A stretch of 32,000 nucleotides of DNA from contig CBDCNV010000002.1 of NCBI GenBank assembly GCA_965219535.1, positions 1,200,001 through 1,232,000 of the forward strand, read 5' to 3'. Origin of the DNA: Opitutales bacterium (GTDB lineage Bacteria; Verrucomicrobiota; Verrucomicrobiia; Opitutales; PNEW01). Shown piece after piece: positions 1,548-29,650 of the stretch (position 1 is its first letter; every line of letters begins with the position of its first letter). The position numbers and the translations under genes were made by a program. The notes below the pieces were generated by a model, which was given only the letters and a program-made list of their open reading frames with translations, was not told where the DNA came from and ran no database searches.

Positions 1548-1934
1548 TCATCTCGATTCGTCCTGTGTGGGAAAGTCGGCTGGCATCGTGATCTCGATAA
1601 CCTCAAAGTCGTCGGAGTACTCCAGTACCTCGTGTTTGATTCCAGACGGCTGGTACCAAGCATCACCGGCCTCGACGCGGATCTCGCCGATGTCTTCAAA
1701 GTCTAAGCGCGCCCACCCGTGGAGCAGGTAGTTCCATTGGAAATCCAGAACATGGGAGTGGTAACCCATGGCTTCCGCGCAAGGTTGAACGGCCCGAATG
1801 ACGTGCGCCATAACTTTACCTTCGGTTGCATCCTTAATTCCCAAATCACGGTATTTAAAATAAGGTCGTAATCCATTTTCCCAATTTGCGTCCTTTGCAT
1901 GTGAAGCAAAAGCCTTGGTTGTTTTCTCGGTCAT
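1548..1934 (-). CDS. Cupin-domain protein
   Basis: 128-aa ORF with a cupin-like HSHVLDFQ ... GDAWYQPSGIKHEV pattern. Longest coherent ORF in the region; overlapping ORFs look spurious. Confidence 0.7.
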   Translation of the reverse strand: MTEKTTKAFASHAKDANWENGLRPYFKYRDLGIKDATEGKVMAHVIRAVQPCAEAMGYHSHVLDFQWNYLLHGWARLDFEDIGEIRVEAGDAWYQPSGIKHEVLEYSDDFEVIEITMPADFPTQDESR

Positions 1935-1985
1935 TGTCTTGTTCCTCCTCTTGAGTTATTTATATCCTTGTCGCTTTAGCAGTTG

Positions 1986-2876: not shown

Positions 2877-2932
2877 AAGGGGGATTCCATTAATTCAGAT
2901 AGGGATTTGTATCGATAATTATAAATATGCAT

Positions 2933-3721: not shown

Positions 3722-3740
3722 TATCCGATTGGATAGAGTT

Positions 3741-3763
3741 AAAAGGTCAAAAAGTCAAAAGGG
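3741..3763 (-). promoter_or_regulatory. TTTTGAC(C/T) octamer array upstream of SDR 2933..3721
   Basis: The sense (minus) strand reads CCCTTTTGACTTTTTGACCTTTTAAC. It ends about 20 nt before the ATG and is followed by TATCCAATCGGATA. Confidence 0.5.
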
Positions 3764-3784
3764 AGATGCAGTAAACATTTAGTA

Positions 3785-3808
3785 AAGGTGGAACTCGCTG
3801 CCTGTCTG
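3785..3808 (+). repeat. Family-B element, partial left arm
   Basis: AAGGTGGAACTCGCTGCCTGTCTGG matches the first ~24 nt of the copies at 1393 and 29492. It abuts REP-A copies. Confidence 0.5.
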
Positions 3809-3854
3809 GCTTGGAAGATGTCGTTCCGCGACAGCGGAACTCGGAACCGGAACG
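3809..3854 (+). repeat. REP-A hairpin repeat, copy 1
   Basis: GCTTGGAAGATGTCGTTCCGCGACAGCGGAACTCGGAACCGGAACG. The stem is GTTCCGC/GCGGAAC with a 4-nt loop. Confidence 0.85.
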
Positions 3855-3857
3855 CGG

Positions 3858-3903
3858 GCTTGGAAGATGTCGTTCCGCGATTGCGGAACTCGGAACCGGA
3901 ACG
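3858..3903 (+). repeat. REP-A hairpin repeat, copy 2 (tandem to copy 1)
   Basis: Same 46-nt unit as copy 1 with loop GATT, separated from copy 1 by 3 nt. Confidence 0.85.
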
Positions 3904-4036
3904 CTGGTCTTAAGGGTAACACGTTTGGATTTAAATCAATTATTCATAAACGCTTGAAATATGTTTATTTGACATTTAAATATAAGTTCTCTCGTCGAGC
4001 ACACATTAAATCACATCACAGAATTATGGGGGAAAT

Positions 4037-15231: not shown

Positions 15232-15270
15232 TTTTGACCTTTTGACCTTTTGACCTTTTGACTTTTTGAC
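15232..15270 (+). promoter_or_regulatory. TTTTGAC(C/T) array (5 units) directly upstream of paralog 2
   Basis: TTTTTGACC TTTGACC TTTTGACC TTTTGAC TTTTTGAC, ending 7 nt before the ATG at 15278. Confidence 0.55.
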
Positions 15271-15277
15271 TTACGTA

Positions 15278-16954
15278 ATGACAGAAAAACCTGAGAAAAA
15301 AAACCCGACTGAATCGCTTGATGTGCAGCGCAGGATCGAAGAGACGATTGCCGGCACGCGGCCCATCGATGACAACTACCCTTATTTCACGCCCGATTAC
15401 GCCTTACACAGTTTACACATTGGCACGGAGAGGCAGTTATTTGTTGATAACTTCATTCTCGATCACCTCGAAGATGTAAAGCGTGTCATATGCAAGCCCC
15501 AACGACCGAAAAATCCAATCTTCAAGTCGAGGGAACTACCCTGGGAATTGAAACCGGGTATTTTTCCTGCCGCGGCTCTCCAGGATCCGGATGACGGCAA
15601 GTTCATGCTCTGGTACTGCCAATCTTATGTCGGTGGAGCCTGGGGTGATTCGGGTATGATCCTTTGTTATGCCGAGTCACAGGATTGTCGGCATTGGGAA
15701 AAACCACTCAGTGAAAAATGTTTCCCTTATAAAGAACACAAAGCAACCAATATCGTTCTTGAAGATTCCGGTCATCATATTGCCCTGGTGGTGAATCCCG
15801 ACCAAAGCGATCCCGCACGTAAATTCATGATACTTTACAATCCTAATGACAAAGCGCAGGAGAGAGGGCAAAAAACAATGTCGACAGTGGCCGTCTCGCC
15901 AGACGGCTTGCAATGGACCACCGTCAGTGAGGATACGCCGATGCGCCATCATCATTATCAACGCGCGATCTGGGATGATTCGATAAATAAATGGATTGCT
16001 TACAGCCAGTATTCCCATCACTGGAACTTTCTCCACCTAAAGCGGCAGGTTGGCCGGCAGGTGAGTGAGGACTTCATCAATTGGTCACCTAAAGAGGTGG
16101 TGCTGTCGGTTGATGGTGACCCCCATTTACCGCCCAATGTAGAATTTCATGAAATGTCGGTGCGCAAGGTGGGTGGTCTCTACATCGGCATCGCGACAGA
16201 ATTTCACTCCGAACCGATTTGGGTTGTCGGTAAGACACGGAATTGGCGCGACCAGGCTTATGCGAACTTAAGTCTCTACGTCAGTCGCGATGGAATACAC
16301 TGGCAGCGGGCAAGCGGCTCGGAGCCATGGGTAGATAATGGACGGCCCGGCAGTTATAATAGTGGATTCGTAGCTGCTTCGGTTGCCGGGCAACTTGTCC
16401 ATGACGGTAAAATCTACATCGTCCACTCTACAGGTCCTAAAAAACAAAGTTGGCACGGCCGACCACCGCAACCGAAATATAAAAACATTCGCCCACTGCC
16501 TACAACCTTTGTGCCCGAAGAAAATTTTGAAAAAGGGGATCGCGATTACGCGCGCCTGGTTGAGAATATGGGTAAATTTCCGAGGGAAGATGGAGGGATC
16601 AGCACCCTCATCCTGCGCGAAGATGGCTGGGCGGAGTTGAAACCAACCTATGAAAACGGCAATGTGATTACCCGGCAGTTTGTCTTCGAAGGCGATACCT
16701 TAAAAGTAAATGCGGATGCCTATGGCGGATACATTGAGGTGGAGATAGTTGATCCTCACTTTAAACCCTTTGCCGGTTTTTCCACTGAGGACTGCGATCC
16801 CGTGGTAAGTGACGATCCCAATCAAATCTGGCACACCGTCAGTTGGAAAGGGAAATCAGATCTCTCCGCACTGTGGAACAAGCCAGTTCGCCTTATCTTC
16901 CATCTCCATCAAGCCAGTATTTTTGCATTTCAGTTTGTGGATAAGCAGGGTTAA
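15278..16954 (+). CDS. Glycoside-hydrolase-like beta-propeller protein (paralog 2)
   Basis: The track ORF starts at a TTG (15266) inside the repeat array. The ATG at 15278 gives MTEKPEKKNPTESLDV, aligning with MKELPEKKTPTESLDV of paralog 1. The two are collinear and roughly three-quarters identical by eye. Confidence 0.6.
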   Translation: MTEKPEKKNPTESLDVQRRIEETIAGTRPIDDNYPYFTPDYALHSLHIGTERQLFVDNFILDHLEDVKRVICKPQRPKNPIFKSRELPWELKPGIFPAAALQDPDDGKFMLWYCQSYVGGAWGDSGMILCYAESQDCRHWEKPLSEKCFPYKEHKATNIVLEDSGHHIALVVNPDQSDPARKFMILYNPNDKAQERGQKTMSTVAVSPDGLQWTTVSEDTPMRHHHYQRAIWDDSINKWIAYSQYSHHWNFLHLKRQVGRQVSEDFINWSPKEVVLSVDGDPHLPPNVEFHEMSVRKVGGLYIGIATEFHSEPIWVVGKTRNWRDQAYANLSLYVSRDGIHWQRASGSEPWVDNGRPGSYNSGFVAASVAGQLVHDGKIYIVHSTGPKKQSWHGRPPQPKYKNIRPLPTTFVPEENFEKGDRDYARLVENMGKFPREDGGISTLILREDGWAELKPTYENGNVITRQFVFEGDTLKVNADAYGGYIEVEIVDPHFKPFAGFSTEDCDPVVSDDPNQIWHTVSWKGKSDLSALWNKPVRLIFHLHQASIFAFQFVDKQG

Positions 16955-19739: not shown

Positions 19740-20114
19740 ATGAGTAAAAGTACGGCCCAATATTGGAATGTTCTAGCGGCCTCGAACGCGTGTGCCTGGG
19801 AAACTATCGATGACACAGACGGTATGATGGAGCAGTTAACTTTAGCGATCGATGATGAAACAGGAGACTACACGCGACTGACACGATTTAAAGTGGGCAC
19901 TAATACCAAAGATTTTGGCAGCAAGTCACATGACTATCCGGAGGAAATATATATTATTTCCGGTCGTTTATACGATGAGGCTTTTGATAGGTGGTTAGAA
20001 GCGGGTCATTATACCAGCCGACCCCCCGGCGAAATTCATGGCCCCTTTATTTGTGAACAGGATTGTTTGGTCTTGGAGATCTCTTATCCAAGCCAGTCCA
20101 ATAATACATCTTAA
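19740..20114 (+). CDS. Cupin-domain protein (ChrR-like cupin)
   Basis: 124-aa ORF 19 nt after the PhyH gene, with the HDYPEEIYIISGRLYD ... PPGEIHGPF cupin pattern. Confidence 0.7.
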   Translation: MSKSTAQYWNVLAASNACAWETIDDTDGMMEQLTLAIDDETGDYTRLTRFKVGTNTKDFGSKSHDYPEEIYIISGRLYDEAFDRWLEAGHYTSRPPGEIHGPFICEQDCLVLEISYPSQSNNTS

Positions 20115-20277
20115 CAGGTATATGTAGTAAGCGGTTCGCTCACTTTGTTAGCTGGACGATGTTGACGCGCTGTTACAATCGATAGATGAAGTTCTCCGAG
20201 TAGTAAGAACCAATGGTGTTGGACCTTTAATCATTAATCCAACAACTAAATAAGTATCTATAAAGTATAAGCTAAAT

Positions 20278-20541
20278 TTAAGCGGCTATTATACTTGAAC
20301 TATTCTCATCACAAACGACTCGGATTTTACCCCCGTTGGTGGCTTCCGCTTTTAGATGTGTTGCCGCGTAGTCTAAGGAATTCGGATTTACGAGGTGTGT
20401 TTCTTCTCCGCTCGTCTCACTGAGCATAACTTTTTTCGCTTTGCCCCATGAGTAAAAGGTAGAGACAACATAATATTGAAAGGTTAAGATTAGAACACCA
20501 GCCATTACCCATAAGATTGGGAGCATATTTGTTATTTCCAT
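20278..20541 (-). CDS. Small single-pass membrane protein, unknown function
   Basis: 87-aa ORF with one hydrophobic helix (MLPILWVMAGVLILTFQYYVVSTF). It lies in AT-rich DNA and has no recognisable motif. Confidence 0.35.
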   Translation of the reverse strand: MEITNMLPILWVMAGVLILTFQYYVVSTFYSWGKAKKVMLSETSGEETHLVNPNSLDYAATHLKAEATNGGKIRVVCDENSSSIIAA

Positions 20542-20975
20542 GATTATTGTTTTTATTAGGGTTTATACTTTATTTCTTGATACTTAATTAATAAAATAGC
20601 CATTTATTTCGTTTTGTATAGCTAAAATTCATAGTTTTTTTTTTTTATATATAATATAGGTAATATACACTATATTTATCATACTTAACTGTTTACAGTT
20701 ATTTGTAGAGGTAAAGAATGATTGAGGGGGGCTTAATTTAGCTGATAACCACTCAATCTCGCTTGATTGGCACTACGGCTGGTGAGTGCTATATTGAGCC
20801 CTCAGAAAAAAAGTGAATTTAAATAGATTAATCCACCTAATTATCCAATGAATGCCTTATGCCGGCATCCGCTCGTCACCCTGTTAAATTCTAATCGGTG
20901 CCCTATAAATATTTTATGATCTTTAATTCGCAAAAAAGAAATAATATTTTTATCACTTAAAAGATGTAGAGGCTG

Positions 20976-21440
20976 ATGAAAAATTTTTCAATGAATATAT
21001 ACCGTTCGATAAAGTTGCACTCCGGTAATTGTGCAGCAGCAACGCTTGTCGAAGTCATGGTCAGCGTAGTCATTTTCGGACTCGTCTTCGGCGCGGTCGC
21101 CTCTGTCCTCACACAGGGATATATGATCATGGAAACCGCGCGCGATAATACCCGTGTCTCTCAAGTGCTCCAAAGCGAAATTGAAAGACTGCGCTCCATG
21201 AGTTGGGCTGATCTGGATGGCTTGCCTAGTCCACAGCAGTACGTACCCCAATCGGGATTCAATGTTGCATTCAACAATCGCTATCAATGCACGAGAGTTA
21301 TCAATGCGCGCAAACCTGACCAAAAAGAGATTATCTTAACCGTCATTTGGGACGACAGTAAATCGATTAATCATGTGCGCCAGTTTGTTACGTATTACAC
21401 TAAGGAAGGATTAAATGACTATTTTTATCGATCGTTTTAA
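20976..21440 (+). CDS. Minor pseudopilin-like protein (GspI-like position), degenerate prepilin N-terminus
   Basis: 154-aa ORF. AATLVEVMVSVVIFGLVFG is a prepilin-like hydrophobic helix containing the conserved Glu. First gene of a tightly packed three-gene set. Confidence 0.6.
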   Translation: MKNFSMNIYRSIKLHSGNCAAATLVEVMVSVVIFGLVFGAVASVLTQGYMIMETARDNTRVSQVLQSEIERLRSMSWADLDGLPSPQQYVPQSGFNVAFNNRYQCTRVINARKPDQKEIILTVIWDDSKSINHVRQFVTYYTKEGLNDYFYRSF

Positions 21441-21966
21441 AAGTGTTCAACGACTGAAAAACCGGGCATTTACACTGGTGGAAGTGTTGATTGCAGTCAC
21501 TATCTCGATGATAGTAATCGGTGGAATTTCATCCGCCTTTTTAGTCTTTGCAAAAAGCACGATGAGCCTGGCTAACTATGCTGATATGAATGGTCAAAGC
21601 CGGACATTTTTAGAGCGTTTTGGAAGAGACATGCGAATGGCAGAAAAAGTATGGGTAGCAACCAGCGAGCGTATAGCGATCGATATTCCCATAACGGGTG
21701 GCAGCACAACCATTGATTATATTTTCGACCCGGACAACAAAAGGGTTCTTAGAGATGTGAATGCTGTGCAAATACCCGTTCTTAATAATGTTGAGGAATT
21801 TGATGTAACTTATTTTAATTTGCAGGGTAATCCGACTACCGCCTTGCTGGAAATTAAAGATGTTCAACTTGAAGCCAGAATTATGAAGAATGTTCTCTTT
21901 ATAGAAAATACTAATCAGATTGTTTCGGCGCGGTTTTTAATGCGAAATCACACCGTTAGTAACTGA
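21415..21966 (+). CDS. Minor pseudopilin (GspJ/PulJ-like), prepilin-type N-terminal domain
   Basis: 183-aa ORF with NRAFTLVEVLIAVTISMIVIGG. It overlaps the upstream gene by 26 nt. Confidence 0.75.
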   Translation: MTIFIDRFKSVQRLKNRAFTLVEVLIAVTISMIVIGGISSAFLVFAKSTMSLANYADMNGQSRTFLERFGRDMRMAEKVWVATSERIAIDIPITGGSTTIDYIFDPDNKRVLRDVNAVQIPVLNNVEEFDVTYFNLQGNPTTALLEIKDVQLEARIMKNVLFIENTNQIVSARFLMRNHTVSN

Positions 21967-21970
21967 TACG

Positions 21971-22368
21971 ATGAAAAATAGACAAACAATAATGCTTAAT
22001 AAAACTCGGGGTGCGGCTTTAGTCATTGCTGTCGTCTTTACTTTAATCATGTCAGCCTTGGTTGTCAGCTATCTCATAATAGTGAAAAATGAATTAAAAG
22101 CATCGAACCGTTTTTCGCTCTTTTTAGAAACCCTAAATATAGCTGAATCTGGAGTAGAAGAAGTTGCCTGGGCACTCAATAATAATGATTGGACGGATTG
22201 GGATGAAACGGGGATATATAAAGAACGAACATTAGATGGTTTTAATCTGAGCGCGAATAAAACGGGAAGCGTCACTATAATCGTAGAGGATTTTGCCAAC
22301 GATCCAACCGTTTATGCCGAAGGACATGTGCAAACTGTAGGTGGAGACGACATTAAAAAGCAAATTGA
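21971..22368 (+). pseudogene. N-terminal fragment of a GspK/PilX-like large minor pseudopilin, interrupted by the IS element
   Basis: RGAALVIAVVFTLIMSALVVSYL is a GspK/PilX-type N-terminus. The ORF continues into the IS (to 22480), producing a chimeric tail. The reading frame resumes at 25255. Confidence 0.8.
22361..22368. repeat. Left copy of the 8-bp target-site duplication, CAAATTGA
   Basis: An identical octamer lies at 25247..25254, immediately outside the other inverted repeat. Confidence 0.85.
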
Positions 22369-22390
22369 GGTAGTGTCTCAGTTTGAATTT
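22369..22390 (+). repeat. IRL of the IS1-family element
   Basis: GGTAGTGTCTCAGTTTGAATTT is the exact reverse complement of 25225..25246. It begins GGTRRTG like IS1 ends. Confidence 0.9.
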
Positions 22391-23220
22391 TCATCAATCA
22401 GGCTAACGATCCAAGCTATATCATGCAATTCGTTAGTCAAACCTGCTTCCATTGCCGGTGTTACTTTTAATGTCTTGTGAATACGAACAAAGTTATAATG
22501 CACGAAATACAGCGACAGCATGTGCAGATGATTTTCCAGTTTCTTAGAAAACGCATTTGTAAGCCGTGTAAAGCGTCTCATTCCCATATGCATAGATAGG
22601 TTGGAACGTTCAACATGTGACGTGCTCACAGCCGACTTGTCAGGTTTGCCAGCGATCAAATTCTTGTGTGTTCCTTTGCATACCGAAGGGCTATATTTAC
22701 GATCATGGCTTTGGCTTGAATCATCACTATAAAGCTTTACTAGTTGTGCATAGTCAACATCTCCCCCAAATGCCCCTTCAATAGCCTGTAAATAGGCACG
22801 GTGACCATCTGTAGTGAGTTGCACACGGTTTGCCAGACGTGACCGCAAATCAGACATAAAATCAAGAGCAGTATCAGCGGAGCGGTCACCCACTTCGTAA
22901 GACAAGATCATCTTGCTGGTGCTATCAAGAGCCGTCCAGGTCCAGACATCACCTGCATCTTGTGGTGCGGCCTTAGCGGTAGGAATATTTTTGTCCTTAG
23001 CGTAGCAGAATGACCAGATTTCATCACACTGGACACGCCGGGCTTTTACGTTGCGAACCTTCTCATTATGATAGGCAGCACAAGCTTTGCCAGCGTCTAC
23101 AAGTAGCTTGGTCACCGTGTTGATTGAAACATCCACAGTTCGGGAGATTGACCGCATGGACATACCTTCAACCAGCATCGAAAGGATCATTACGCGTTTT
23201 TCTAAGGGCAGTTTGTTCAT
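22378..23220 (-). CDS. IS1-family transposase (single-ORF type, HTH + DDE)
   Basis: 280-aa ORF with the N-terminal HTH MSMRSISRTVDVSINTVTKLL. Candidate DDE residues lie in QCDEIWSF, TTDGHRAY and VERSNLSMHMGMRRFTRLTNAFSKKLENH. The last matches the IS1 InsB pattern IERxNLxxRxxxxRLxRKxxxFSK. Confidence 0.85.
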   Translation of the reverse strand: MNKLPLEKRVMILSMLVEGMSMRSISRTVDVSINTVTKLLVDAGKACAAYHNEKVRNVKARRVQCDEIWSFCYAKDKNIPTAKAAPQDAGDVWTWTALDSTSKMILSYEVGDRSADTALDFMSDLRSRLANRVQLTTDGHRAYLQAIEGAFGGDVDYAQLVKLYSDDSSQSHDRKYSPSVCKGTHKNLIAGKPDKSAVSTSHVERSNLSMHMGMRRFTRLTNAFSKKLENHLHMLSLYFVHYNFVRIHKTLKVTPAMEAGLTNELHDIAWIVSLIDENSN

Positions 23221-23269
23221 GCCCTTAATATCGTATAATGACCCTTATTTATCAAGCATTAATTTCACT

Positions 23270-23470
23270 TTAAGTGAAATTATACGGCCTACTTTTATTG
23301 CTTCCATATGGAAATGGAATGCTTGCAGGTTCATTCTGGGTATCTTCTTCAAGATCACTTAGATAGTCTAAATCATCAAATTCTTCTTTAAGTCTTCGAT
23401 TAGCATCATCAAAGATCTTTATATATGGATTGGTTGATTTATCAGACTCTGGTGATTGATTTTTTTTCAT
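23270..23470 (-). CDS. Small acidic protein (66 aa), unknown function, IS cargo
   Basis: Its ATG overlaps the protease stop as ATGA (23467..23470). Rich in D/E (EEFDDLDYLSDLEEDTQNE). No known motif. Confidence 0.45.
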   Translation of the reverse strand: MKKNQSPESDKSTNPYIKIFDDANRRLKEEFDDLDYLSDLEEDTQNEPASIPFPYGSNKSRPYNFT

Positions 23471-24357
23471 ATTATTGTCCTTAGTCCTTGTTGTGAATGA
23501 ATATAACCTCTAATACCAGATTTTTTGGTATAATAATCGACGCAAAGACCATGATAATGTTTAATTGCGTTATTTAGTTCTTCGTTATTTCCATAATCGT
23601 CTACCTCTAATTTAATTTCAGGTCCCACCAATTCTCTCATAGGAATACCTCGACCATGTGAGTGCCATTTTTCAGCATTCCCTAAAATTTTGCTGATATC
23701 CTCTGCTCGTTTTTTCTTCATTTTATCAGTAACTTTCTCTTTTCTGGATCCAGTTTCATTCCAATCTTTAAATTTATATTTCGGGAGCCATTCCATAATA
23801 AGCGATCTACCATGATTAATCGCTTGTTCAATACGAAATAGTAGAGCTGGATCAAAATTTTTCACCAAATACGCCAATTCTGCATTTGATGGTAACTCAG
23901 GATTATTAATTATTTCTGTAAGGTCCTTATATTTTGAGAGATAACCAACACCAGGCAAAAGCTGCTTGCCTTCTGGGTCTTGATATTGAGGATCTATTGG
24001 CCCTAAAACAGAATAATAGTCCATGTAAATAGCATCACCAGAAAGAGCTAGAACTGTTCCTGCTGAATATGCATAGTTTGGTATTACAAAAGAAACTTTT
24101 TCGTATATAGAGCGCATAACAGAAACCAATCTTTCCACTGTTTCCATATATCCACCTAAAGTTTCAAGCATGACGATGAGATGCGTTTTCTCAGAATCGA
24201 TGGATACATTTTCAATGACGATTCTAAATTCATCGTCAAGAGGTGCCTGTAAGCCACAATTTATAAAGACACAATCCCCTTCCATCAACCTACTCAAATT
24301 CTTGTTTATATCTAGAAGAGTACATTGAATGAGTTGATCTACATTTATCCCCTCCAT
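23467..24357 (-). CDS. SDH-family ClpP/crotonase-fold serine proteinase (S49-like), IS cargo
   Basis: 296-aa ORF. LETLGGYMETVERLV ... NYAYSAGTVLALSGDAIYMDYYSVLGPIDPQ matches the ClpP-fold serine-protease core (nucleophile Ser in YSAGT). Confidence 0.75.
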   Translation of the reverse strand: MEGINVDQLIQCTLLDINKNLSRLMEGDCVFINCGLQAPLDDEFRIVIENVSIDSEKTHLIVMLETLGGYMETVERLVSVMRSIYEKVSFVIPNYAYSAGTVLALSGDAIYMDYYSVLGPIDPQYQDPEGKQLLPGVGYLSKYKDLTEIINNPELPSNAELAYLVKNFDPALLFRIEQAINHGRSLIMEWLPKYKFKDWNETGSRKEKVTDKMKKKRAEDISKILGNAEKWHSHGRGIPMRELVGPEIKLEVDDYGNNEELNNAIKHYHGLCVDYYTKKSGIRGYIHSQQGLRTII

Positions 24358-24566
24358 CTTTTCTCGGCTGCTTTCTTGGCAATCTTAGTCCTTTGCTCAC
24401 GCGTTAAGGATTCAGCACGTGCTTTACCTCCAACTAGTCCTCCATTGCGTTTTGCTGGTTGTTTGTAACCTGTTTCCTCGATTTCACCCGTCGCGATCTT
24501 TGCAACTGTTACAGCATTGCCAATCACGTCCGCAGGTCGTTTTTGTCCTTTTTGTCCTTTTGGCAT
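24345..24566 (-). CDS. Small basic protein (73 aa) with C-terminal GGKARAxxLTxEQRxxIAKKAAxKRW motif, IS cargo
   Basis: Lys/Arg-rich. ADVIGNAVTVAKIATGE plus the GGKARA...RW tail is a pattern I recall from small uncharacterised proteins on mobile DNA. The stop overlaps the protease start by 13 nt. Confidence 0.6.
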   Translation of the reverse strand: MPKGQKGQKRPADVIGNAVTVAKIATGEIEETGYKQPAKRNGGLVGGKARAESLTREQRTKIAKKAAEKRWRG

Positions 24567-24637
24567 TAGTTTTATGTTGGATTATTCGGCTGGTATATCC
24601 TTTAAAAATTGTGGACGGATAATATATTTATACAAAC

Positions 24638-24678
24638 AAAAAAAATTACATACCCGCAATCTGGCAGCGGGTATGTAA
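24638..24678 (-). terminator. Perfect 12-bp stem hairpin followed by U8 on the minus strand (intrinsic-terminator shape) in a divergent intergenic region
   Basis: TTACATACCCGC-AATCTGGCA-GCGGGTATGTAA, with A8 (24638..24645) on the plus strand, which is U8 after the stem on the minus strand. It lies upstream of the minus-strand cargo operon. Confidence 0.55.
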
Positions 24679-24718
24679 AAATAATATCATTACCCACATT
24701 TTGCAACAAAAAATCGAG

Positions 24719-25237
24719 ATGAACGATGCGAAGCAACTATTTTGGGAAGCCATCGACTGGTTGCGAGAAAGTTATTTTGAACATCGGTTCTTTGCCGAGC
24801 GGGATATTGTTTGGACGGTTCAGAAGCGCCTTATAGACGAGATTTCGCGGAAAGATCTACCGTATCGAGTATTTCATAACTACACTATAGAACTGAAAAA
24901 TGAAAATATCTACGCCGACCTTGTCCTGATCAGGCCAAAGGAAACAGTTGAAGTGGCGGCTGAATTCAAATATGAACCTGCGCATAGAAGAAGTAAAATA
25001 GATATACCTCCAGGGAAATTTAATGTCGTTAGGTGGCCCGAGGTCGAAAAAGATGTAGTTCGCATCAAGGATTGTGTGAATGAGAAACGTGTGCAATATG
25101 CTTGTTCTCTACTCATCGACGAAGGAGGTCATTTCAAAAAAAACGAACCTCCCCTTGGCGGTCGTTGGGAGAGGTGGTCGTCCGAAATCCATGTTCTCAT
25201 TTCGGAGGCAAAAAATCATTCCATAAATTCAAACTGA
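24719..25237 (+). CDS. Hypothetical protein with a PD-(D/E)xK-like motif, IS cargo
   Basis: The track ORF begins at a TTG (24701), so I prefer the ATG at 24719 (172 aa). IYADLVLIRPKETVEVAAEFKYEP fits D...ExK on consecutive beta-strands. The stop codon lies inside the IRR. Confidence 0.45.
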   Translation: MNDAKQLFWEAIDWLRESYFEHRFFAERDIVWTVQKRLIDEISRKDLPYRVFHNYTIELKNENIYADLVLIRPKETVEVAAEFKYEPAHRRSKIDIPPGKFNVVRWPEVEKDVVRIKDCVNEKRVQYACSLLIDEGGHFKKNEPPLGGRWERWSSEIHVLISEAKNHSINSN

Positions 25238-25246
25238 GACACTACC
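25225..25246 (-). repeat. IRR of the IS1-family element
   Basis: AAATTCAAACTGAGACACTACC is the exact reverse complement of the IRL. Confidence 0.9.
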
Positions 25247-25254
25247 CAAATTGA
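25247..25254. repeat. Right copy of the 8-bp target-site duplication, CAAATTGA
   Basis: Identical to 22361..22368. Confidence 0.85.
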
Positions 25255-26173
25255 GGTAAAATTGACGCGCCGTTCTCTATTTGCTAATTGTCTCACCGCC
25301 AAGGATTTTATAACCTTTATGGGTGCAAATGCTATGGTTGACAGTTTTGATTCCAATGACGGACCCTATGACCCATTTTTTAATCGTGGCGCTAATGCAA
25401 CGGTAGCGAGTCTTTCCGTAGGCGTAAGTATGGTCAATATACAAAATGCAAGTATCTTTGGCTATGTTGCCACGGGGGGTGGAGAGGTTGATGTCGGACC
25501 CAATGGTTTTGTTTCTGATATGGTTGATCCTCCGGTACACGATTCCACCAGGATCACAAATGATTTTAAGGCAGATTTAAAGAATGTATCTGCCCCCACT
25601 CTGAGTTCTCCCACAACCACATTGCCGGGTGGTAATGTCAAAACTATCGGAGTACCAAATGCTAATCCTCCTGATGAATTCCATTTCACAGACCTTACTA
25701 TCGGTAACAATGAAACCCTTATTATTGATGGGCCAGTTACTATTGTCGTAGATAATGAAGTTGATGCAAGAGGTGATATTACGGTGACACCCAATGGATC
25801 AGTCACATTTTATGTTGAAGGTGATTTCGAAACCAAGGGTGCCATAAATAATACTAACGTAGCTTCGTCACTTGTCATCTACGGCACAAATACCACACCT
25901 CTAGGTCAAAGTATAACCTTAGGTGGACAGGGTGACCTCACGGCGGTAGTATACGCTCCTAATGCAGAGTTAAAGTATGCTGGTGGTGGTGGTTCTGGGA
26001 CGTTTACTGGTGCTGCTGTTTGTTACAGTTCAAGTATCGGTGGAACCTATGAATTTCATTATGACGTAGCACTAAGGGACTTTTTTGGTTCGGATCCCTC
26101 CTTTAAGATGGTGAGTTATCGCGAACTTGAAGGGAACGATAGAATCGATTTCGCCACTTACATAAACCCGTAA
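25255..26173 (+). pseudogene. C-terminal fragment of the interrupted GspK/PilX-like pseudopilin (beta-helix-like tail)
   Basis: It has no ATG; the track ORF starts at a TTG (25262). It is in frame with 21971..22368 once the IS and one TSD copy are removed. VDSFDSNDGPYDP and LVIYGT...GGQGDLTAVVYAPNAELKYAGGG are typical of PilX-like tails downstream of minor pilins. Confidence 0.8.
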
Positions 26174-26203
26174 AGTCGGAAGGCCTGAGAATCGGACAAC
26201 CAG

Positions 26204-26241
26204 TACCGAGTTCCGCAGTTGCGGAACGACATCTTCCAAGC
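26204..26241 (-). repeat. REP-A hairpin repeat, copy 6 (inverted orientation)
   Basis: TACCGAGTTCCGCAGTTGCGGAACGACATCTTCCAAGC. Confidence 0.85.
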
Positions 26242-26362
26242 CTGAAAGTCGGAGAACCGGAAGGACAGAAAGTTAGAAGGCTAGAAAATGGAGGGCTGGA
26301 AAGCCAGATATCCAAAACCCCTGAACCGTGAACTATGAACCCTCTTCCCCTTTTGACTCTAT

Positions 26363-26956
26363 TCATTCGACCATCGGCAATCGGTATGCTCCAACGTTTC
26401 GCATCCAACTACTATCTCCCCAACGGGAGCAAGAGCTGAAAAAAAAGTTGGTTATCGCCGTCGTGCCTGACGGGGGGATCCACGTAGTTCTAACTTTGAT
26501 CTTTCGGGTCCTGATCTGGATAAAAGGAAGTGCGAGGGGATAGACGGGGAGGTCAGAGTCTCTTCTAAGATTCTTTTTGTAAATTAACCCGGTAGTGATT
26601 CCAAAGCCGAAGCTGAAGTTCTCGGTTTTATGCAAAAGGCGTGTGAAGGAGAAGCCGGCAGCGAAAGCCCAGTGGCGTTGGGAGTCATTAAAAATGTCAG
26701 CTTCCAAGGCGATCATTATTCTGTTTAAGAAACTGAATTGGGTATCCTGCGTATAGAACAAGTCGTAGTGAAATCCGACTCCATAAAGGTAATCGTTGGA
26801 GGTAGGATTTGCATCGAAATGATAATTTAGCCCATTAATATGAAGATAGGTAGAACGAATTGGAGAAATATGATCAGGGATATTCGCTTCGGCGAACACA
26901 CATAGACCAATCAATAAAATTGGACTTATGTACAATCTGTGAAAATTTATTTCCAT
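26363..26956 (-). CDS. PagP-family outer-membrane beta-barrel acyltransferase-like protein
   Basis: I prefer the start at Met12 of the track ORF (MEINFHRLYISPILLIGLCVFAEA signal peptide). YLHING (His), IFNDSQ (Asp-Ser) and FGFGITTGLIY...LPVYPLALPFIQIRTRKIKVRTTWIPP parallel E. coli PagP ITWH, FKDSW and LGLGFTAGV...[24 protein letters not shown]. The last ~25 aa look like read-through. Confidence 0.55.
   Translation of the reverse strand: MEINFHRLYISPILLIGLCVFAEANIPDHISPIRSTYLHINGLNYHFDANPTSNDYLYGVGFHYDLFYTQDTQFSFLNRIMIALEADIFNDSQRHWAFAAGFSFTRLLHKTENFSFGFGITTGLIYKKNLRRDSDLPVYPLALPFIQIRTRKIKVRTTWIPPSGTTAITNFFFSSCSRWGDSSWMRNVGAYRLPMVE
26386..26439 (+). pseudogene. Remnant of the 5' end of a PhyH-family gene (paralog of 28576..29400)
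   Basis: MLQRFASNYYLPNGSKS* against MSQRFESNYPLDPKQ of the 28576 gene. It is preceded by the same TTTTGAC plus AATCGG word architecture (26350..26385). Confidence 0.5.
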
Positions 26957-26995
26957 ACATCTCCCAATCCGCAATCGGCTATCCTGCATCCTCTC

Positions 26996-27066
26996 TTGTC
27001 ATTGCGAAGGAGGCAAAACCGACTGCGGCTACCGAGTCCCGCAACTGCGGGACTCGCGATGACAAT
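26996..27066. repeat. MITE-like family-C element (about 71 nt)
   Basis: The ends TTGTCATTGCGA and TCGCGATGACAA are inverted. There is an internal perfect hairpin GAGTCCCGC-AACT-GCGGGACTC. The left half matches the inverted right half of 17065..17204. Confidence 0.55.
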
Positions 27067-27092
27067 AGGAATCAATCGATAATCGCAATCGA

Positions 27093-27413
27093 TCATGTTT
27101 CTTCTTCGATTCGCTCGAGTAAGAAGAAGACGGGTCTGAAGCCGTCTGTGCAGTTAGTGACAAAGGTGCCCGGTTTCGTGCCGACCATATTACCGCCGCG
27201 TGCCAGGACAACAACGTATTTCTGGATGTCGGACCAGGCCCAGTCACTGAATCCCTCGGGCATATGGCCGTCAGAAATAAAACTTTGACCTACATCAAAG
27301 TCGTGACAACACCCCTCCGGCTTCCATTCTACCCCTTCGGTGTAGGCATCGACAAAATCCTGGTTAAACGTTTTTTTCAAAACCGTAATGCGCACTTTTT
27401 TCGGTTTCAGCAT
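27093..27413 (-). CDS. TIGR04076-family protein (function unknown)
   Basis: 106-aa ORF. The pattern VRITVLKKTF...PEGFSDWAWSDIQKYVVVLARGGN...CTDGFRPVFFLLERI matches my memory of the TIGR04076 family. Confidence 0.65.
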   Translation of the reverse strand: MLKPKKVRITVLKKTFNQDFVDAYTEGVEWKPEGCCHDFDVGQSFISDGHMPEGFSDWAWSDIQKYVVVLARGGNMVGTKPGTFVTNCTDGFRPVFFLLERIEEET

Positions 27414-27434
27414 CTAAATCACCTACCTTGTCAA

Positions 27435-28340
27435 TCAACTTAGTCGAGCCAGGTATTGACCGACAATATCTATCTTCACGAGTTTACTATAAGATTTTTG
27501 GAGACGATCGGTAATAGATCCAGGCACTTTACCATCACCGATGGCCGAACCGTTAATTGAGGAAACAGGGCAGATGCAGTAGCTGGTGGAGGTAATAAAC
27601 GCCTCGTCTGCAGTGTAAGCGTCATAAAGATCAATGTCGGTTTCTTGCACTGCCAATTTCAAATTTTGGGCTAACTCGATCGTAGTTTGACGGCTAATGC
27701 CTGCCAGAATGTACTGTTCTTTCGGCGTGATCACTACACCCTTCTTGACAATGAATATATTGCTTCCCTGCCCTTCGCACAGGTTGCCGTTGACGTCCTG
27801 TAAGATGGGTATAGCGTTCGGATTCTGAGCCTTTACCTCCTGTTCGGCAAGCCCGAGGTTGATGTAGTTGTGTACTTTGGCCCTGGGGCTCATCGACTGA
27901 GGTGGCGTCCGCCTTATTGAAGGGGTGACGACGAGTAGACCGTCACGATAATACTTGGCCCTCGCTTCAAATGGTAATGGTATGCACTCAATAATAACGG
28001 TTGGCTTTTGTTCGCCCGTTGCCACGGGCACACCACGGGTTACGCGCTGTCCTACCCAGTAGTCGTCGTTAGCTTCGAGGAGAGGTAGATTCACTTCGAC
28101 CACTTGCATTGTCAGTTCTGACATTTTGTCCTGAGGCATCCCCGGGTCCAGACGCATATACTTGAGTGAGTTATAGAATCGGTCCAGATGTTCCTTTAGT
28201 TTGAATACTATGCCGCCGAAGGTGCGGGTCATATCAAAGGCCGCATCACCCCACACAAATCCCCGGTCGCGGATGGAAATCTTTGCTTCGCTTTCCGGAA
28301 CTAGCTCACCGTTCATATATACTACACGTTCTTGGGCCAT
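27435..28340 (-). CDS. Class IV (fold type IV) aminotransferase, branched-chain / D-amino-acid aminotransferase family
   Basis: 301-aa ORF with YMNGELVPESEAKISIRDRGFVWGDAAFDMTRTF, LKEHLDRFYNSLKYMRL and LAGISRQTTIELA, all typical of the family. Confidence 0.9.
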   Translation of the reverse strand: MAQERVVYMNGELVPESEAKISIRDRGFVWGDAAFDMTRTFGGIVFKLKEHLDRFYNSLKYMRLDPGMPQDKMSELTMQVVEVNLPLLEANDDYWVGQRVTRGVPVATGEQKPTVIIECIPLPFEARAKYYRDGLLVVTPSIRRTPPQSMSPRAKVHNYINLGLAEQEVKAQNPNAIPILQDVNGNLCEGQGSNIFIVKKGVVITPKEQYILAGISRQTTIELAQNLKLAVQETDIDLYDAYTADEAFITSTSYCICPVSSINGSAIGDGKVPGSITDRLQKSYSKLVKIDIVGQYLARLS

Positions 28341-28423
28341 ATTGATTATCTTAGAATAATAATTTATTCGGGAGGGGAGATTTTCGATTGCCGACAGTGC
28401 GGTGTCGAGCCTTACTATCGTTA

Positions 28424-28453
28424 GTTGCGTCGCTACCCTCCCTGCAATGACAA
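28424..28453 (-). repeat. Family-C terminal repeat, solo copy
   Basis: The reverse complement TTGTCATTGCAGGGAGGGTAGCGACGCAAC resembles TTGTCATTGCGAGGAGCATTGCGACGAAGC at 17065. Confidence 0.4.
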
Positions 28454-28507
28454 GGAAGAGAGGGAAAAGGGAGATGTATTAATCCGCTTTCACTCATAAT
28501 CACATTT

Positions 28508-28540
28508 CTTTTTTGACCTTTTGACTTTTTATCTTTTGAC
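28508..28540 (+). promoter_or_regulatory. TTTTGAC array upstream of the PhyH gene, followed by AATCGGC words
   Basis: CTTTTTTGACCTTTTGACTTTTTATCTTTTGAC, then AATCAATCGGCAATCGCAAATCCGAAATCGGC up to the ATG at 28576. Confidence 0.5.
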
Positions 28541-28575
28541 GCTAATCAATCGGCAATCGCAAATCCGAAATCGGC

Positions 28576-29400
28576 ATGTCTCAACGCTTTGAATCCAACT
28601 ACCCGCTCGATCCCAAACAGATCGAGGAGTGGGTGGATACCTTTAACCGCCAGGGGTTCCTCTTCCTGGAAAATGTTCTGACCGAAGATCATGTTGCCCA
28701 GTTGAAAGCCGACTTCGAATGGTCGATGAACAATATCTCGTCAGGCGGCAATGAACCCGATGACCAACTCAGAACTAATAAAACAACAAATCTTCGTCTT
28801 TGTCACCGGATGTTCGAACACAGTCCGGCCAACTTGAGCCTTTTTGATCTCGAACCCATCGTCAGCTTTGCCGAAGCTCTGGTTGCGCCCAATTGCCATG
28901 TCATGCACAACAACTCATTTGTCACATTCCCGGGTGGTGGCATATCCAATTGGCACCAGGACGACGCTCCGCATATGATCGTCACCGAGGGGGAACCGCC
29001 CACGAATATTCAGCTGCCGGTTCTCGCCTTTACCTGCAACTATTATTTGACTGATGTCACGAAAATCGAGCAGGGCGGCACCGAAGTCATTCCCGGTTCG
29101 CATCTTTTTGGCGCGGATGCTCGCAAGGTTGATGTCAATGAGAATTGGGCGGATAAAATTCACTACAATTTGGGAAAGGCTGGCAGCGTTGTCATGTTCA
29201 ATAACCAGGTCTGGCACCGCGGTGGTCCCAATCGTACAGACAGGAAACGTTACATAACCCAGGTTTCTTATGCCCGTCGGTTTATTGGTCACAAATATTT
29301 CCCCTTTATGAATTACACCATGCCCGAGCATGTCTACAAGGACGCCAACCCCAGGCTCAAACGCCTGCTCGGTTTTCTCGAACACGGGGCCTACGGTTAG
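28576..29400 (+). CDS. Phytanoyl-CoA dioxygenase (PhyH) family Fe(II)/2OG oxygenase
   Basis: 274-aa ORF with NWHQDD (HxD) and a distal His in NNQVWHRGGPN. Confidence 0.85.
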   Translation: MSQRFESNYPLDPKQIEEWVDTFNRQGFLFLENVLTEDHVAQLKADFEWSMNNISSGGNEPDDQLRTNKTTNLRLCHRMFEHSPANLSLFDLEPIVSFAEALVAPNCHVMHNNSFVTFPGGGISNWHQDDAPHMIVTEGEPPTNIQLPVLAFTCNYYLTDVTKIEQGGTEVIPGSHLFGADARKVDVNENWADKIHYNLGKAGSVVMFNNQVWHRGGPNRTDRKRYITQVSYARRFIGHKYFPFMNYTMPEHVYKDANPRLKRLLGFLEHGAYG

Positions 29401-29491
29401 GAATAGGAAGGCCGGAAAGCCGATTTCCAGAAAGCCGGAAGGCTGGAGAGCCTGATGGCTCGCCTGTGGTGAAAGACTTGAGAAACTATAA

Positions 29492-29548
29492 AAGGTGGAA
29501 CGCGCTGCCTGTCCGACATAGCCTTCGCGACGGCTGATCCCTAGCGCG
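29492..29548 (+). repeat. Family-B element, left half only
   Basis: AAGGTGGAACGCGCTGCCTGTCCGACATAGCCTTCGCGACGGCTGATCCCTAGCGCG is collinear with 1393..1450. No right arm follows. Confidence 0.6.
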
Positions 29549-29650
29549 TTTCTTATAAGTAATAAAAAAGATGCGTATTGAGAACATCTGCACACTCAGT
29601 TATAAGTTAGTCTTGTGCATCTTGTGGCTATCATTCTTTGCCCAAAGACA

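Follow-up and report, generated by a model that had tools for sequence, protein, structure and literature searches.

A cargo-carrying transposon, probably from a distant single-ORF branch of IS1, inserted in a DUF7305 gene

Introduction

IS1 produces its transposase by a -1 frameshift between insA and insB', its InsA protein (zinc finger plus HTH) acts as a repressor, and DNA bounded by IS1 repeats is mobilised in trans (PMC12903888). Insertion sequences with passenger genes, termed transporter IS (tIS), have been described for IS1595 (Siguier, Gagnevin & Chandler 2009, as cited in PMC3129680), and the TnCentral preprint of 2021 restricts tIS to IS1595 and IS66 (10.1101/2021.05.26.445724). Tn7-like transposons join a conserved core to a variable set of defence and toxin-antitoxin genes carried as cargo (PMC8649781). 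We analysed a window of 32,000 nucleotides in which a first-pass annotation, made from the letters alone, had described a recent insertion of a cargo-carrying IS1-family element into a minor-pseudopilin gene.

Results

The element is 2878 bp long (22369-25246). Its ends are perfect 22-bp inverted repeats (IRs), GGTAGTGTCTCAGTTTGAATTT and the exact reverse complement, which were re-checked and found exact at the positions first proposed; complementarity ends at 22 bp. Searching the window for GGTAGTGTCTCAGTTTGAATTT with up to 3 mismatches allowed returned only the two element ends, against an expectation of 0.00 (100 shuffles). The family consensus of the repeat is GGTAGTGTCTCAGTTTGAAAT. The 8-bp target-site duplication (TSD), CAAATTGA, was likewise found again at both ends. 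The direct repeat flanking the element extends to 12 nt (CAAATTGAGGTA) because the target by chance carries on with GGTA. An uninterrupted site was found in a syntenic relative, L087, whose flanks are 93-96% identical to the window. This empty site reads ...AAGCAAATTGAGGTAAAAC..., so an 8-bp TSD followed by an IR tip of GGTAGTG is the correct parsing, and the window therefore holds a true insertion.

When the element and one TSD copy were excised, 21971-22368 and 25255-26173 joined to give 1317 nt (438 codons plus stop), reading ...DIKKQIE up to the junction and VKLTRRSLF... beyond it, which confirmed the in-frame rejoining proposed earlier. The L087 orthologue is intact (441 aa, 81% amino acid identity) and aligned without gaps over the junction, and full-length homologues of 441-443 aa span 100% of the rejoined protein. 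The 5' part has 93% nucleotide identity to the L087 orthologue. The 3' part is still without stops or frameshifts and has a dN/dS of 0.12 against the orthologue. These intact fragments and the low dN/dS support a recent insertion, but a transposase substitution discussed below (R211H) is possibly disabling. If the 2.9-kb segment were instead ancestral, the split gene would be two genes and the repeats would be coincidental. All assemblies of the exact lineage carry the segment, and nothing else favours this reading; it is refuted by the single uninterrupted site in L087 and by the full-length homologues. The chance expectation for the 22-bp repeat and the matching repeats that bound 58 other elements with perfect TSDs also speak against it, and we give it practically no weight.

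The label of GspK/PilX-like minor pseudopilin is weakly supported: the target protein has a DUF7305 domain (Pfam, E 9e-26) and matched PilX_N at E 0.064, under the threshold. Two genes bearing prepilin N-methylation motifs precede the target gene.

Table 1. Features of the element and the interrupted gene (window coordinates)
Feature	Position	Strand	Basis or remarks
Target gene, 5' part	21971..22368	+	codons 1-132 plus 2 nt; hydrophobic PilX_N-like N-terminus
TSD, left copy, CAAATTGA	22361..22368		single copy at L087 empty site
IR, transposase-proximal (IRR in transposase orientation)	22369..22390	+	GGTAGTGTCTCAGTTTGAATTT; includes transposase stop codon
Transposase, 280 aa, single ORF, DDE	22378..23220	-	Pfam PF03400, NCBIfam IS1, alignment
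Transposase-proximal control region	23227..23284	-	AAAnTGAA box, then TTGATA-17 nt-GATATT; ends ~7 nt before ATG
Cargo ORF66, small acidic protein	23270..23470	-	C-terminal IPFPYG motif
Cargo ORF296, ClpP-fold SDH-type serine protease	23467..24357	-	profile matches; GC 35%
orfA, 73-aa basic core protein	24345..24566	-	in 70/70 related elements
Palindrome, perfect 12-bp stem	24646..24678		TTACATACCCGC-9 nt-GCGGGTATGTAA; divergent region between orfA and ORF178
Cargo ORF178	24701..25237	+	172 aa from ATG at 24719; stop codon inside terminal repeat
IR, orfA-proximal (IRL in transposase orientation)	25225..25246	-	reverse complement of 22369..22390
TSD, right copy, CAAATTGA	25247..25254		direct repeat of left copy
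Target gene, 3' part	25255..26173	+	1 nt plus 305 codons plus stop; DUF7305 domain

We surveyed 70 related elements with matching terminal repeats from other genomes. They range from 2118 to 5291 bp, and 58 have a perfect 8-bp TSD. Transposase and orfA are both present in all 70 with the variable cargo between them, and a bare ~1-kb IS was not seen among them. Cargo in these relatives includes MTase with HNH, XRE with M78, SocA/Panacea, RelE (toxin-antitoxin), and an aspartyl protease. One element, L002, has a 96%-identical transposase and different cargo, and splits a DUF4336 gene with its own 8-bp TSD. The pairs L037/L053 and L012/L048 each share a conserved whole unit, cargo included, although the species and the insertion sites differ. 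Metagenomes also hold IR-bounded derivatives without a transposase (117-1323 bp, and one of 2868 bp) that have perfect 8-bp TSDs; the smallest metagenome element with a transposase is 1992 bp. The element belongs to a very widespread, apparently uncatalogued IS1-type group in which one small conserved gene is always present beside swappable cargo.

An IR pair around the transposase alone was absent in all relatives checked, in agreement with a single unit. The unit could otherwise be secondary or nested: an ordinary ~1-kb IS would have been deprived of its inner repeat, or have taken up adjacent DNA, so that a distant surrogate repeat came to serve as its end, the cargo being an accident of the window copy and not a family trait. 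Consistent with that history, cargo GC (32-35%) is unlike that of the transposase (45%; flanks 47.5%), and the AAAnTGAA box, a short motif preceding the transposase, is partly like the inner part of the repeat. However, this box is oriented as the transposase-proximal repeat and not as a lost inner repeat would be, and no locus has a repeat beside the transposase start. The extra DNA lies inside one IR pair in every related element and in the transposase-bearing metagenome ones (1992 bp and above), and orfA is conserved in all elements. We consider a nested origin very improbable.

An HTH lies at the N-terminus of the transposase, and its catalytic residues are D66, D138, and E204. The protein matched PF03400 at 30.6 bits (gathering score 24.1), and NCBIfam gave IS1 at E 3.5e-20 versus IS1595 at E 1.2e-5, with an IS1 equivalog score of 72.8 bits, under the cutoff of 100. 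IS1 was the top transposase family in both Pfam and NCBIfam for the window protein and for 34 of 34 relatives, and all annotated PLSDB matches bearing a family name were IS1 family. We aligned the window transposase with those of the 70 relatives and with IS1A InsB, using a reference sequence confirmed as 100% IS1A. The three catalytic residues and an ER.NL...R...FSK block align with IS1A InsB; the VERSNL...R..RLTNAFSK motif noted at first pass is present and aligns to IERHNL...R..RKSLSFSK. The spacing from the second D to the E is 66 residues versus 25 in IS1A. The transposase has neither the insA/insB' frameshift nor the zinc finger, which makes its clade a remote branch, and by profile match and alignment it most probably represents a distant IS1-family lineage with a single transposase ORF.

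IS1595 is an IS1-related family already known for tIS derivatives, and a member of it would be an ordinary IS1595-type tIS and not an IS1-family element. The 8-bp TSD (58/70), the passenger genes, the long D2-E spacing, and a single ORF of roughly 295 aa all recall descriptions of IS1595, for which ISfinder and the 2009 account reportedly give these same traits. The NCBIfam IS1595 model was also a weak secondary match in 34 of 34 members (best E 1.4e-8). In contrast, IS1 models were ahead by ~47 bits for the window protein and, when best E-values are compared, by ~14 orders of magnitude, and Pfam DDE_Tnp_IS1595 matched 0 of 34 members at E<=0.01 whereas PF03400 matched all 34. The GGTAGTG tips agree with IS1-type GGnnnTG ends, and NCBI names the homologues as IS1 family. 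Assignment to IS1595 is, therefore, unlikely.

The element encodes four minus-strand ORFs (280, 66, 296, and 73 aa) and one plus-strand ORF (178 aa). Four of the five had been counted as extra; three are cargo, but the 73-aa ORF is orfA, the conserved core gene. OrfA is 72-80 aa long across the related elements, and the pattern for the element family is MPKG.KGQKRPADVIGNAV..AKIATGE...GGKARA..LT.EQR..IAKKAA..RW; its homologues fall into about 5000 clusters. In the window, orfA and the start of the protease gene share 13 nt, and the AlphaFold model of its product has three helices (pLDDT 80.6) with no fold match in PDB. ORF296 matched PF01972 (Pfam, E 5e-12), Clp_like_SDH (NCBIfam, E 3e-15), and PHROG 11747 (E 2.9e-42). 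ORF66 is translationally coupled to the protease gene (ATGA overlap), and its homologues in L007, L010, and L028 are always downstream of the protease; the module is 61-67% identical in these elements, whose transposases are 73-77% identical. ORF178 occupies a second cargo slot, flanked by the orfA-proximal repeat on one side and orfA on the other. Its family, conserved and uncharacterised (316 representative clusters), has a PD-(D/E)xK-like D...EFKYEP pattern, and some members are fused to DUF429 or DUF6946; the structure model of ORF178 was of low confidence, and no match was found in Pfam, PADLOC, or PHROG. PADLOC also returned no match for orfA or ORF296/ORF66.

The control region was defined from the upstream regions of 67 elements and a promoter scan. 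Its family consensus is cTTGaca...tAtatt, with a -35-like box in 63 of the 67, and it forms the right edge of the variable cargo slot, where homology to L002 resumes. The palindrome between orfA and ORF178 may serve as an operator or fold within a 5' leader.

Residue 211 of the window transposase, seven residues past the catalytic Glu (E+7), is His, and it is Arg in IS1A and in 68 of 71 aligned sequences; R211H may, therefore, have crippled or inactivated this copy. Only one copy per genome was seen, in the source genome and in a widespread marine relative, which counts against the main explanation. The exact protein occurs at a single site only, in three assemblies. This and R211H, together with the visible decay of a related element (L088) and the finding of no uninterrupted allele above 81% identity, would suit a dead relic that inserted once and became fixed and immobile in the lineage, its perfect repeats reflecting only a short time since insertion. 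Apart from R211H, however, the ORF runs to full length and keeps D, D, and E, both repeats are perfect, the TSD and split gene are undamaged as described above, and the change from Arg to His is a conservative one between basic residues. We regard a dead relic as possible but on balance doubtful. It touches present activity and not identity, and is thus compatible with our main explanation.

Discussion

Taken together, these data indicate that 22369-25246 is very probably one autonomous-type transposon, from a distant IS1 branch with a single-ORF transposase, inserted whole into a DUF7305/PilX-like gene. This bears out the core of the first-pass annotation, namely a single IS1-type unit with passenger genes that recently split the gene in frame. 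From the anatomy of the element and the biology of IS1, we infer that the DDE transposase would bind the ~21-bp terminal repeats via its N-terminal HTH, cleave at the GGTAGTG tips, and join them to target cuts with an 8-bp stagger, repair of which would give the CAAATTGA duplication. Targets are mildly AT-rich with a weak palindrome, about S-A-A-W-W-T-T-S. The family layout runs from the orfA-proximal repeat through optional cargo, orfA, obligatory variable cargo, and a conserved, putative sigma-70-like promoter to the transposase, whose stop codon lies within the other repeat. In the window copy, the predicted protease with its coupled acidic ORF66 fills the obligatory slot, and the divergent PD-(D/E)xK-like ORF178 the first one. 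Cargo exchange between related backbones appears to occur through recombination within two conserved segments, orfA and promoter/transposase. OrfA most likely acts as InsA does in IS1, as a small regulator or accessory factor that binds nucleic acid. For the window cargo, a selfish or defensive role (addiction or defence modules) is the most likely one, on the pattern of sister elements.

The window element resembles IS1 (IS1A/IS1E, Escherichia coli, the type member) in that the DDE block aligns, the terminal repeats begin GGT..TG, the TSD is 8 or 9 bp in IS1, and the transposase stop codon lies inside a terminal repeat in both. It differs in its single ORF, with no frameshift or zinc finger and a longer D2-E spacing, and has the unrelated small orfA in the upstream position where IS1 has insA. 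IS1 is 768 bp without passenger genes, whereas in the window clade cargo takes up 0.8 kb or more. The family table of "Everyman's guide" reportedly lists an ISMhu11 subgroup of IS1 (ISfinder) of about 900-4600 bp, with two ORFs and a frameshift. Such lengths, well beyond the 768 bp of IS1, would leave room for extra genes on an IS1-type element, but the window clade lacks the two ORFs and frameshift listed for that subgroup; ISMhu11 was not mentioned in open-access papers.

The first-pass annotation noted that cargo-bearing IS1 elements are not known to be a described class. Our literature search yielded no publication on IS1-family elements with passenger genes as a group; however, tIS are already described for IS1595 and IS66. 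In tIS, as in the window element, one IR pair encloses the transposase and unrelated genes, and the TSD is 8 bp; tIS passenger genes reportedly include methyltransferases and regulators in the 2009 account. In contrast to tIS, the window transposase matches IS1 and not IS1595 profiles, cargo is present throughout the sampled clade and not occasionally, and orfA is conserved clade-wide. The transposase-less metagenome relatives resemble MITEs and mobile insertion cassettes, but the window element encodes a transposase. Tn7-like transposons and the window family both have a conserved transposition core with highly variable addiction- or defence-type cargo. However, Tn7-like elements use multi-subunit TnsABC, are site-specific, and reach tens of kb, whereas the window family has a single DDE protein, little target specificity, and a size of 2-5 kb.

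Insertion of the element into a DUF7305 gene

The window element is 2878 bp long, with a GC content of 39.9% compared to 47.5% in its flanks. Its outer limits were as the first-pass annotation had described them. The 22-bp sequence GGTAGTGTCTCAGTTTGAATTT (22369-22390) recurs as its exact reverse complement at 25225-25246, and pairing stops at 22 bp; these perfect repeats, each with the tip GGTAGTG, were the only 2 sites in the window at up to 3 mismatches (0.00 expected in shuffles). The 8-bp duplication CAAATTGA borders both ends, and the direct repeat there in fact spans 12 nt, CAAATTGAGGTA, because the target goes on with GGTA. Joining 21971-22368 to 25255-26173 restored the claimed reading frame, a 1317-nt ORF of 438 codons (...DIKKQIE-VKLTRRSLF...), and the element-free sequence at the insertion point would read AAGCAAATTGAGGTAAAATTGACG.

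Full-length homologues, 441-443 aa long, cover 100% of the rejoined protein. P0121, the closest at 81% identity, aligns without a gap over the junction; no uninterrupted allele above 81% identity was found in the homologue search with the rejoined protein. The P0121 locus (L087) is syntenic with the window, from Amidohydro_2, Rieske and PhyH genes to 2 genes with prepilin motifs and then the DUF7305 gene. At the DNA level, window 20062-22372 aligned with L087 4088-6402 at 93%, and window 25247-26248 aligned with L087 6391-7401. L087 also supplies the empty site to which the first-pass annotation had pointed as a check: it has a single copy of the 12 shared bases, reading AAAAAGCAAATTGAGGTAAAAC, and the insertion is precise at the outer repeats.

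Pfam matched the rejoined protein to DUF7305 (E 9e-26) and, under threshold, to PilX_N (E 0.064), with no N_methyl match. The 2 genes upstream carry N_methyl motifs, and one JGI homologue of the protein bears the name "Tfp pilus assembly protein PilX". Judged by the names given to distant DUF7305 homologues, the host probably belongs to the Verrucomicrobiota. The consequence for this genome is the knockout of a pilus-like (DUF7305) gene. The 3' fragment has no stops, and its dN/dS relative to the orthologue was 0.12, compared to 0.15 for the 5' fragment, so the divergence arose while the gene was functional. A recent disruption would fit divergence gathered under function. The exact transposase and protease were found at a single site, in 3 or 4 assemblies, with no further copies of the window element; every assembly with the exact transposase has it at this one site.

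Identity of the DUF7305 orthologues fell from approximately 93% left of the insertion to 50-80% over the C-terminal domain (window 25255-26100, L087 6403-7250), with a dS of 1.49 versus 0.27 across the drop. The fall is gradual, and identity is back to approximately 95% in the last 100 nt of the gene. This pattern points to a hypervariable or recombining domain, and the start of the drop near the insertion point is probably a coincidence. Recombination mediated by the IS was considered as a cause of the jump in divergence and was rejected, since the fall is gradual, identity is regained on the 3' side, dN/dS stays near 0.12 throughout, and a naturally variable domain fits.

Past the target gene (window 26250-29550) synteny is broken, with PagP, Aminotran_4, and PhyH genes in the window and MR_MLE in L087; the element thus borders a rearranged region. 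Pieces of the 3 window genes map upstream in L087. Elsewhere in the window, 2 adjoining plus-strand ORFs of 562 aa each (13407-15095 and 15266-16954) had no Pfam match.

The transposase probably belongs with IS1

The transposase matched Pfam DDE_Tnp_IS1 (PF03400) at 30.6 bits, over a gathering score of 24.1, and the same model matched 34/34 relatives (best E 1.9e-9). Among NCBIfam models the best match was IS1 (NF033558; E 3.5e-20, 72.8 bits, under the equivalog cutoff of 100), with IS481 the runner-up at 29.6 bits, approximately 43 bits behind, and IS1595 (NF033547) at 25.3 bits against a cutoff of 75. IS1 again ranked first in all 34 relatives, and Pfam DDE_Tnp_IS1595 had no match in the 34 members at E ≤ 0.01. 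A best score that is nonetheless under the cutoff marks the clade as a probable remote branch of the IS1 family. NCBI and JGI both label homologues "IS1 family transposase".

For alignment, IS1A InsB served as the reference, a PLSDB search having given 100% IS1A. Residues D66, D138, and E204 of the transposase align with it, as does the block VERSNLSM.MGMRRFTRLTNAFSK. A PDB sequence search with the transposase returned no solved structure. Canonical IS1, 768 bp long, has insA/insB' joined by a -1 frameshift, is repressed by InsA, and makes duplications of 8/9 bp (PMC12903888). In contrast to those overlapping frames, the window transposase is a single ORF with no frameshift. Its spacing from the second D to E is 66 residues compared to 25 in IS1A, and its N-terminus has an HTH and lacks the zinc finger (Cys motif) that accompanies the HTH in InsA; HTH_Tnp_IS1 was weakly matched in 2/34 relatives. 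ISfinder accepts IS1 members with a single ORF, and the missing frameshift alone therefore does not bar membership. The ISfinder rule for terminal repeats of the family is a GGnnnTG tip, with which GGTAGTG agrees, and the 8-bp duplication compares with 8/9 bp in IS1.

A basic residue at E+7 is a general signature of DDE transposases. This position is Arg in 68 of the 71 family sequences, in IS1A InsB, and in the 96%-identical copy in L002 (the element with the closest backbone), and it is His in the window copy. On this substitution (R211H), the window transposase may be attenuated, disabled or dead.

Location of transposase features in the window and loci of transposase-less elements
Feature	Position or loci	Strand	Description or source
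Transposase	22378-23220	minus	280-aa single ORF
His at E204+7	codon 211, 22590-22592	minus	Alignment of family and IS1A InsB
Transposase-less loci (1/2)	L177, L156, L183, L094, L104, L122, L175, L188, L100, L152		JGI metagenome contigs
Transposase-less loci (2/2)	L124, L109, L180, L186, L137, L130, L167, L178, L142, L206		JGI metagenome contigs

A family of elements with two universal genes

With each GTDB species represented by one genome, the scan gave 511 tblastn-confirmed loci, and the best 80 of the 511 were fetched. These came mostly from Alphaproteobacteria, with some from Gammaproteobacteria, Latescibacterota, and Dehalococcoidia. In 70 of the best 80 of 511, the repeat GGTAGTGTCTCAGTTTGAA (at up to 4 mismatches) was present as a single inward-facing pair; the consensus terminal repeat across the family is GGTAGTGTCTCAGTTTGAAAT. 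The 70 elements so bounded measure 2118-5291 bp, and 58 have a perfect 8-bp duplication. Mean GC of the 58 duplications was 49%, compared to 60% in their own flanks, and they follow a weak S-A-A-W-W-T-T-S pattern, with which the window duplication agrees.

The first-pass annotation had allowed for a nested or composite event. That reading fails, since none of the loci examined has a repeat adjoining the transposase start; a composite transposon is also excluded by the single transposase gene and the presence of just 2 repeat copies in the window.

Clustering of all ORFs left exactly 2 universal genes among the 70 elements, the transposase and a homologue of orfA of 72-80 aa. In most elements the stop codon of the transposase is 9 bp away from the end of the element. 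Approximately 60 nt 5' of the transposase ATG is a conserved block, aaa.tgaa..t.aTGCTTGaca-(17)-tAtatt-7 nt-ATG, that looks like a sigma-70 promoter (23227-23284 in the window); being so near the ATG, it would leave the transposase mRNA nearly leaderless. The AAAnTGAA box in this block was also considered as a vestigial inner repeat and was rejected, as its orientation is wrong and it matches over just approximately 6-8 nt. The region from orfA to the promoter-like block is wholly variable, and some elements have extra variable DNA, either between the orfA-proximal repeat and orfA (the position of ORF178 in the window element) or after the transposase.

In the window element, the transposase and ORF178, which both read outward, end in ...NSN-stop (22378-22390 and 25225-25237) using AATTCAAACTGA encoded by the inverted repeat; the repeat therefore provides a stop codon at either end. 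A palindrome with a perfect 12-bp stem and a 9-nt loop lies between the divergent orfA and ORF178 (24646-24678), where it may act as an operator or leader structure; L002 has no such palindrome. An Rfam search of the window returned zero structured-RNA matches.

Two loci are on plasmids of cultured isolates. In L085 (Hoeflea sp. IMCC20628, NZ_CP011481.1), positions 1821-4876 hold a 78-aa hypothetical protein, a 216-aa hypothetical protein, an XRE family regulator, and an IS1 family transposase, and L086 (Acidiphilium multivorum) has the same architecture as the family. The records of these plasmids annotate no mobile element. P0014, for which 47 contigs were listed, was considered as a multi-copy relative and was rejected as a single locus seen in many samples.

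OrfA is a candidate regulator or accessory factor

The orfA consensus reads MPKGPQGQKRPADVIGNAVxVAKIATGEIE...GAKARA..LT.EERSEIA.KAA..RW. Its homologues form approximately 5000 clusters without a Pfam domain, which NCBI names "RNA-binding protein" or "histone H1". Searches of orfA against Pfam, NCBIfam, and PADLOC gave no match, and PHROG gave just a short one. The AlphaFold model of OrfA, from a 49-sequence alignment, has three helices (pLDDT 80.6), and a PDB fold search with it found no significant neighbour (best E 2.9). In the window element, orfA and the first cargo gene share 13 nt. OrfA is basic and universal, and its gene lies upstream, which together suggest a regulator or accessory factor like InsA. 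Being conserved, orfA may belong to a core for transposition or regulation rather than to the cargo.

Cargo and its probable exchange

Cargo that recurs in sister elements includes N6/N4 DNA methylase-HNH fusions, XRE-HTH with M78 (ImmA/IrrE) peptidase, SocA/Panacea antitoxin domains with small membrane proteins, RelE-type toxin-antitoxin pairs, aspartyl protease, and HTH proteins. In the window element, ORF296 encodes a serine protease of the SDH type with a ClpP fold (PF01972, E 5e-12; PHROG 11747, E 2.9e-42). ORF66 shows translational coupling to it and carries a conserved IPFPYG motif at its C-terminus. This pair occupies the same slot in 3 relatives (L007, L010, and L028), with proteases 61-67% and transposases 73-77% identical. 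ORF178 belongs to an unnamed conserved family of 316 representative clusters with the pattern ERD...D...EFKYEP...DEGG, fused in some proteins to DUF429 or DUF6946. The pattern is compatible with a putative PD-(D/E)xK nuclease; Pfam, NCBIfam, PADLOC, PHROG, and PDB sequence searches gave ORF178 no family or structure match, and its single-sequence structure model was poor (pLDDT 45.9). None of the window cargo proteins had a match in PADLOC.

L002 is the closest backbone, with transposase 96% and orfA 94% identical to the window element. This element, 2187 bp long, is flanked by an 8-bp duplication of its own, ATCGATTG, splits a DUF4336 gene, and has DUF6941 and a RelE pair as cargo. Homology to the window element is confined to 3 stretches, namely the tips of the repeats, orfA between -12 nt and the point 9 nt short of its stop, and the end section that starts 64 nt 5' of the transposase ATG. 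Different cargo also stands beside orfA of at least 90% identity in L089 (86+86 aa) and L091 (SocA_Panacea). Whole units with the same cargo are found at different sites, with different duplications and in different species (L037/L053 and L012/L048); like the precise empty site in L087, they speak indirectly for movement of the element with its cargo. The simplest reading of these comparisons is that the whole unit transposes, cargo included, and that cargo is exchanged through recombination in the conserved flanks.

A rearranged or decayed L002-type copy is present in the same DUF4336 site in another genome from the window's own sample (L088, 4943-6380). It retains orfA and DUF6941, and of its transposase a fragment of approximately 110 nt is left, interspersed with target-gene pieces. 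Decay or assembly of a mixed population could account for this arrangement.

Transposase-less derivatives

An exact search of JGI metagenomes with the 22-mer returned at least 120 contigs. Among the matches listed were many relatives, none with the cargo of the window element. Also listed were elements without transposase that lie between such repeats and perfect 8-bp duplications, 117-1323 bp long apart from one of 2868 bp; the smallest transposase-bearing element among the matches listed was 1992 bp. One locus, L094, contains 2 copies of 154 bp. By their structure, we classify the transposase-less elements as MITE- or MIC-like derivatives of the family.

Comparison with transporter insertion sequences

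Taken together, these data indicate that the element reported in the first-pass annotation is real and was read correctly; its boundaries, its empty site, and its IS1-best profile matches are shown. The further suggestion that cargo-bearing IS1 elements are an undescribed class stands in part. We found no description of IS1-family elements with passenger genes in the open-access literature; however, transporter IS (tIS) are already known, and the window element is therefore conceptually less unprecedented than first thought. As one member of a huge orfA-plus-cargo family, it is also a more general finding. The IS1 table of ISfinder has an ISMhu11 subgroup of up to approximately 4.6 kb, and the open-access literature searched had no mention of ISMhu11. 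There may therefore be a catalogued precedent in ISfinder.

For the clade, the searches gave 511 confirmed loci in the representatives of GTDB species, protein clusters by the thousand, and at least 120 metagenome contigs with the exact 22-mer. We tentatively propose, as a possibility that falls a little short of an even chance, that it is an uncatalogued and very large IS1-family clade that is never a bare IS. Each member would combine the transposase, OrfA as a structurally novel 3-helix protein and new IS accessory or regulatory factor, and a hot-swappable slot for toxin-antitoxin, restriction-modification-like, XRE-M78 or protease genes, with MITE/MIC offshoots. Such a minimal "cargo platform" of 2-5 kb would have cargo that stabilises or pays for the element.

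If confirmed, this would offer a compact natural system for the acquisition, swapping, and expression of addiction- or defence-type genes by a one-protein transposon, with the SDH-type protease plus small IPFPYG protein and the ORF178 family as candidate modules for functional tests. With the 21-bp repeat, the 8-bp duplication, and orfA, annotators could then easily set the limits of thousands of mobile units of 2-5 kb whose genes currently bear just the label "IS1 family transposase" beside "hypothetical protein", "RNA-binding protein" or "histone H1".

In the usual view, IS are bare transposase genes and tIS are rare derivatives in a couple of families. In contrast, every sampled element of this very widespread IS1 branch has cargo and a conserved small gene. 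IS with passenger genes are named transporter IS in 2 papers (PMC3129680, PMC9330008), the term having come with the IS1595 family, and a review of IS6 states that "a number of IS families" have members with passenger genes (PMC7986276). Confirmation of the clade would extend tIS to the IS1 family. As in tIS, the window element and its 70 relatives each have a single pair of terminal repeats and a single target duplication around a transposase and passenger genes, and, likewise, those genes are not tied to transposition, whether the ORF296 protease of the window element or the RelE, SocA/Panacea, MTase-HNH, and XRE-M78 proteins of its sisters.
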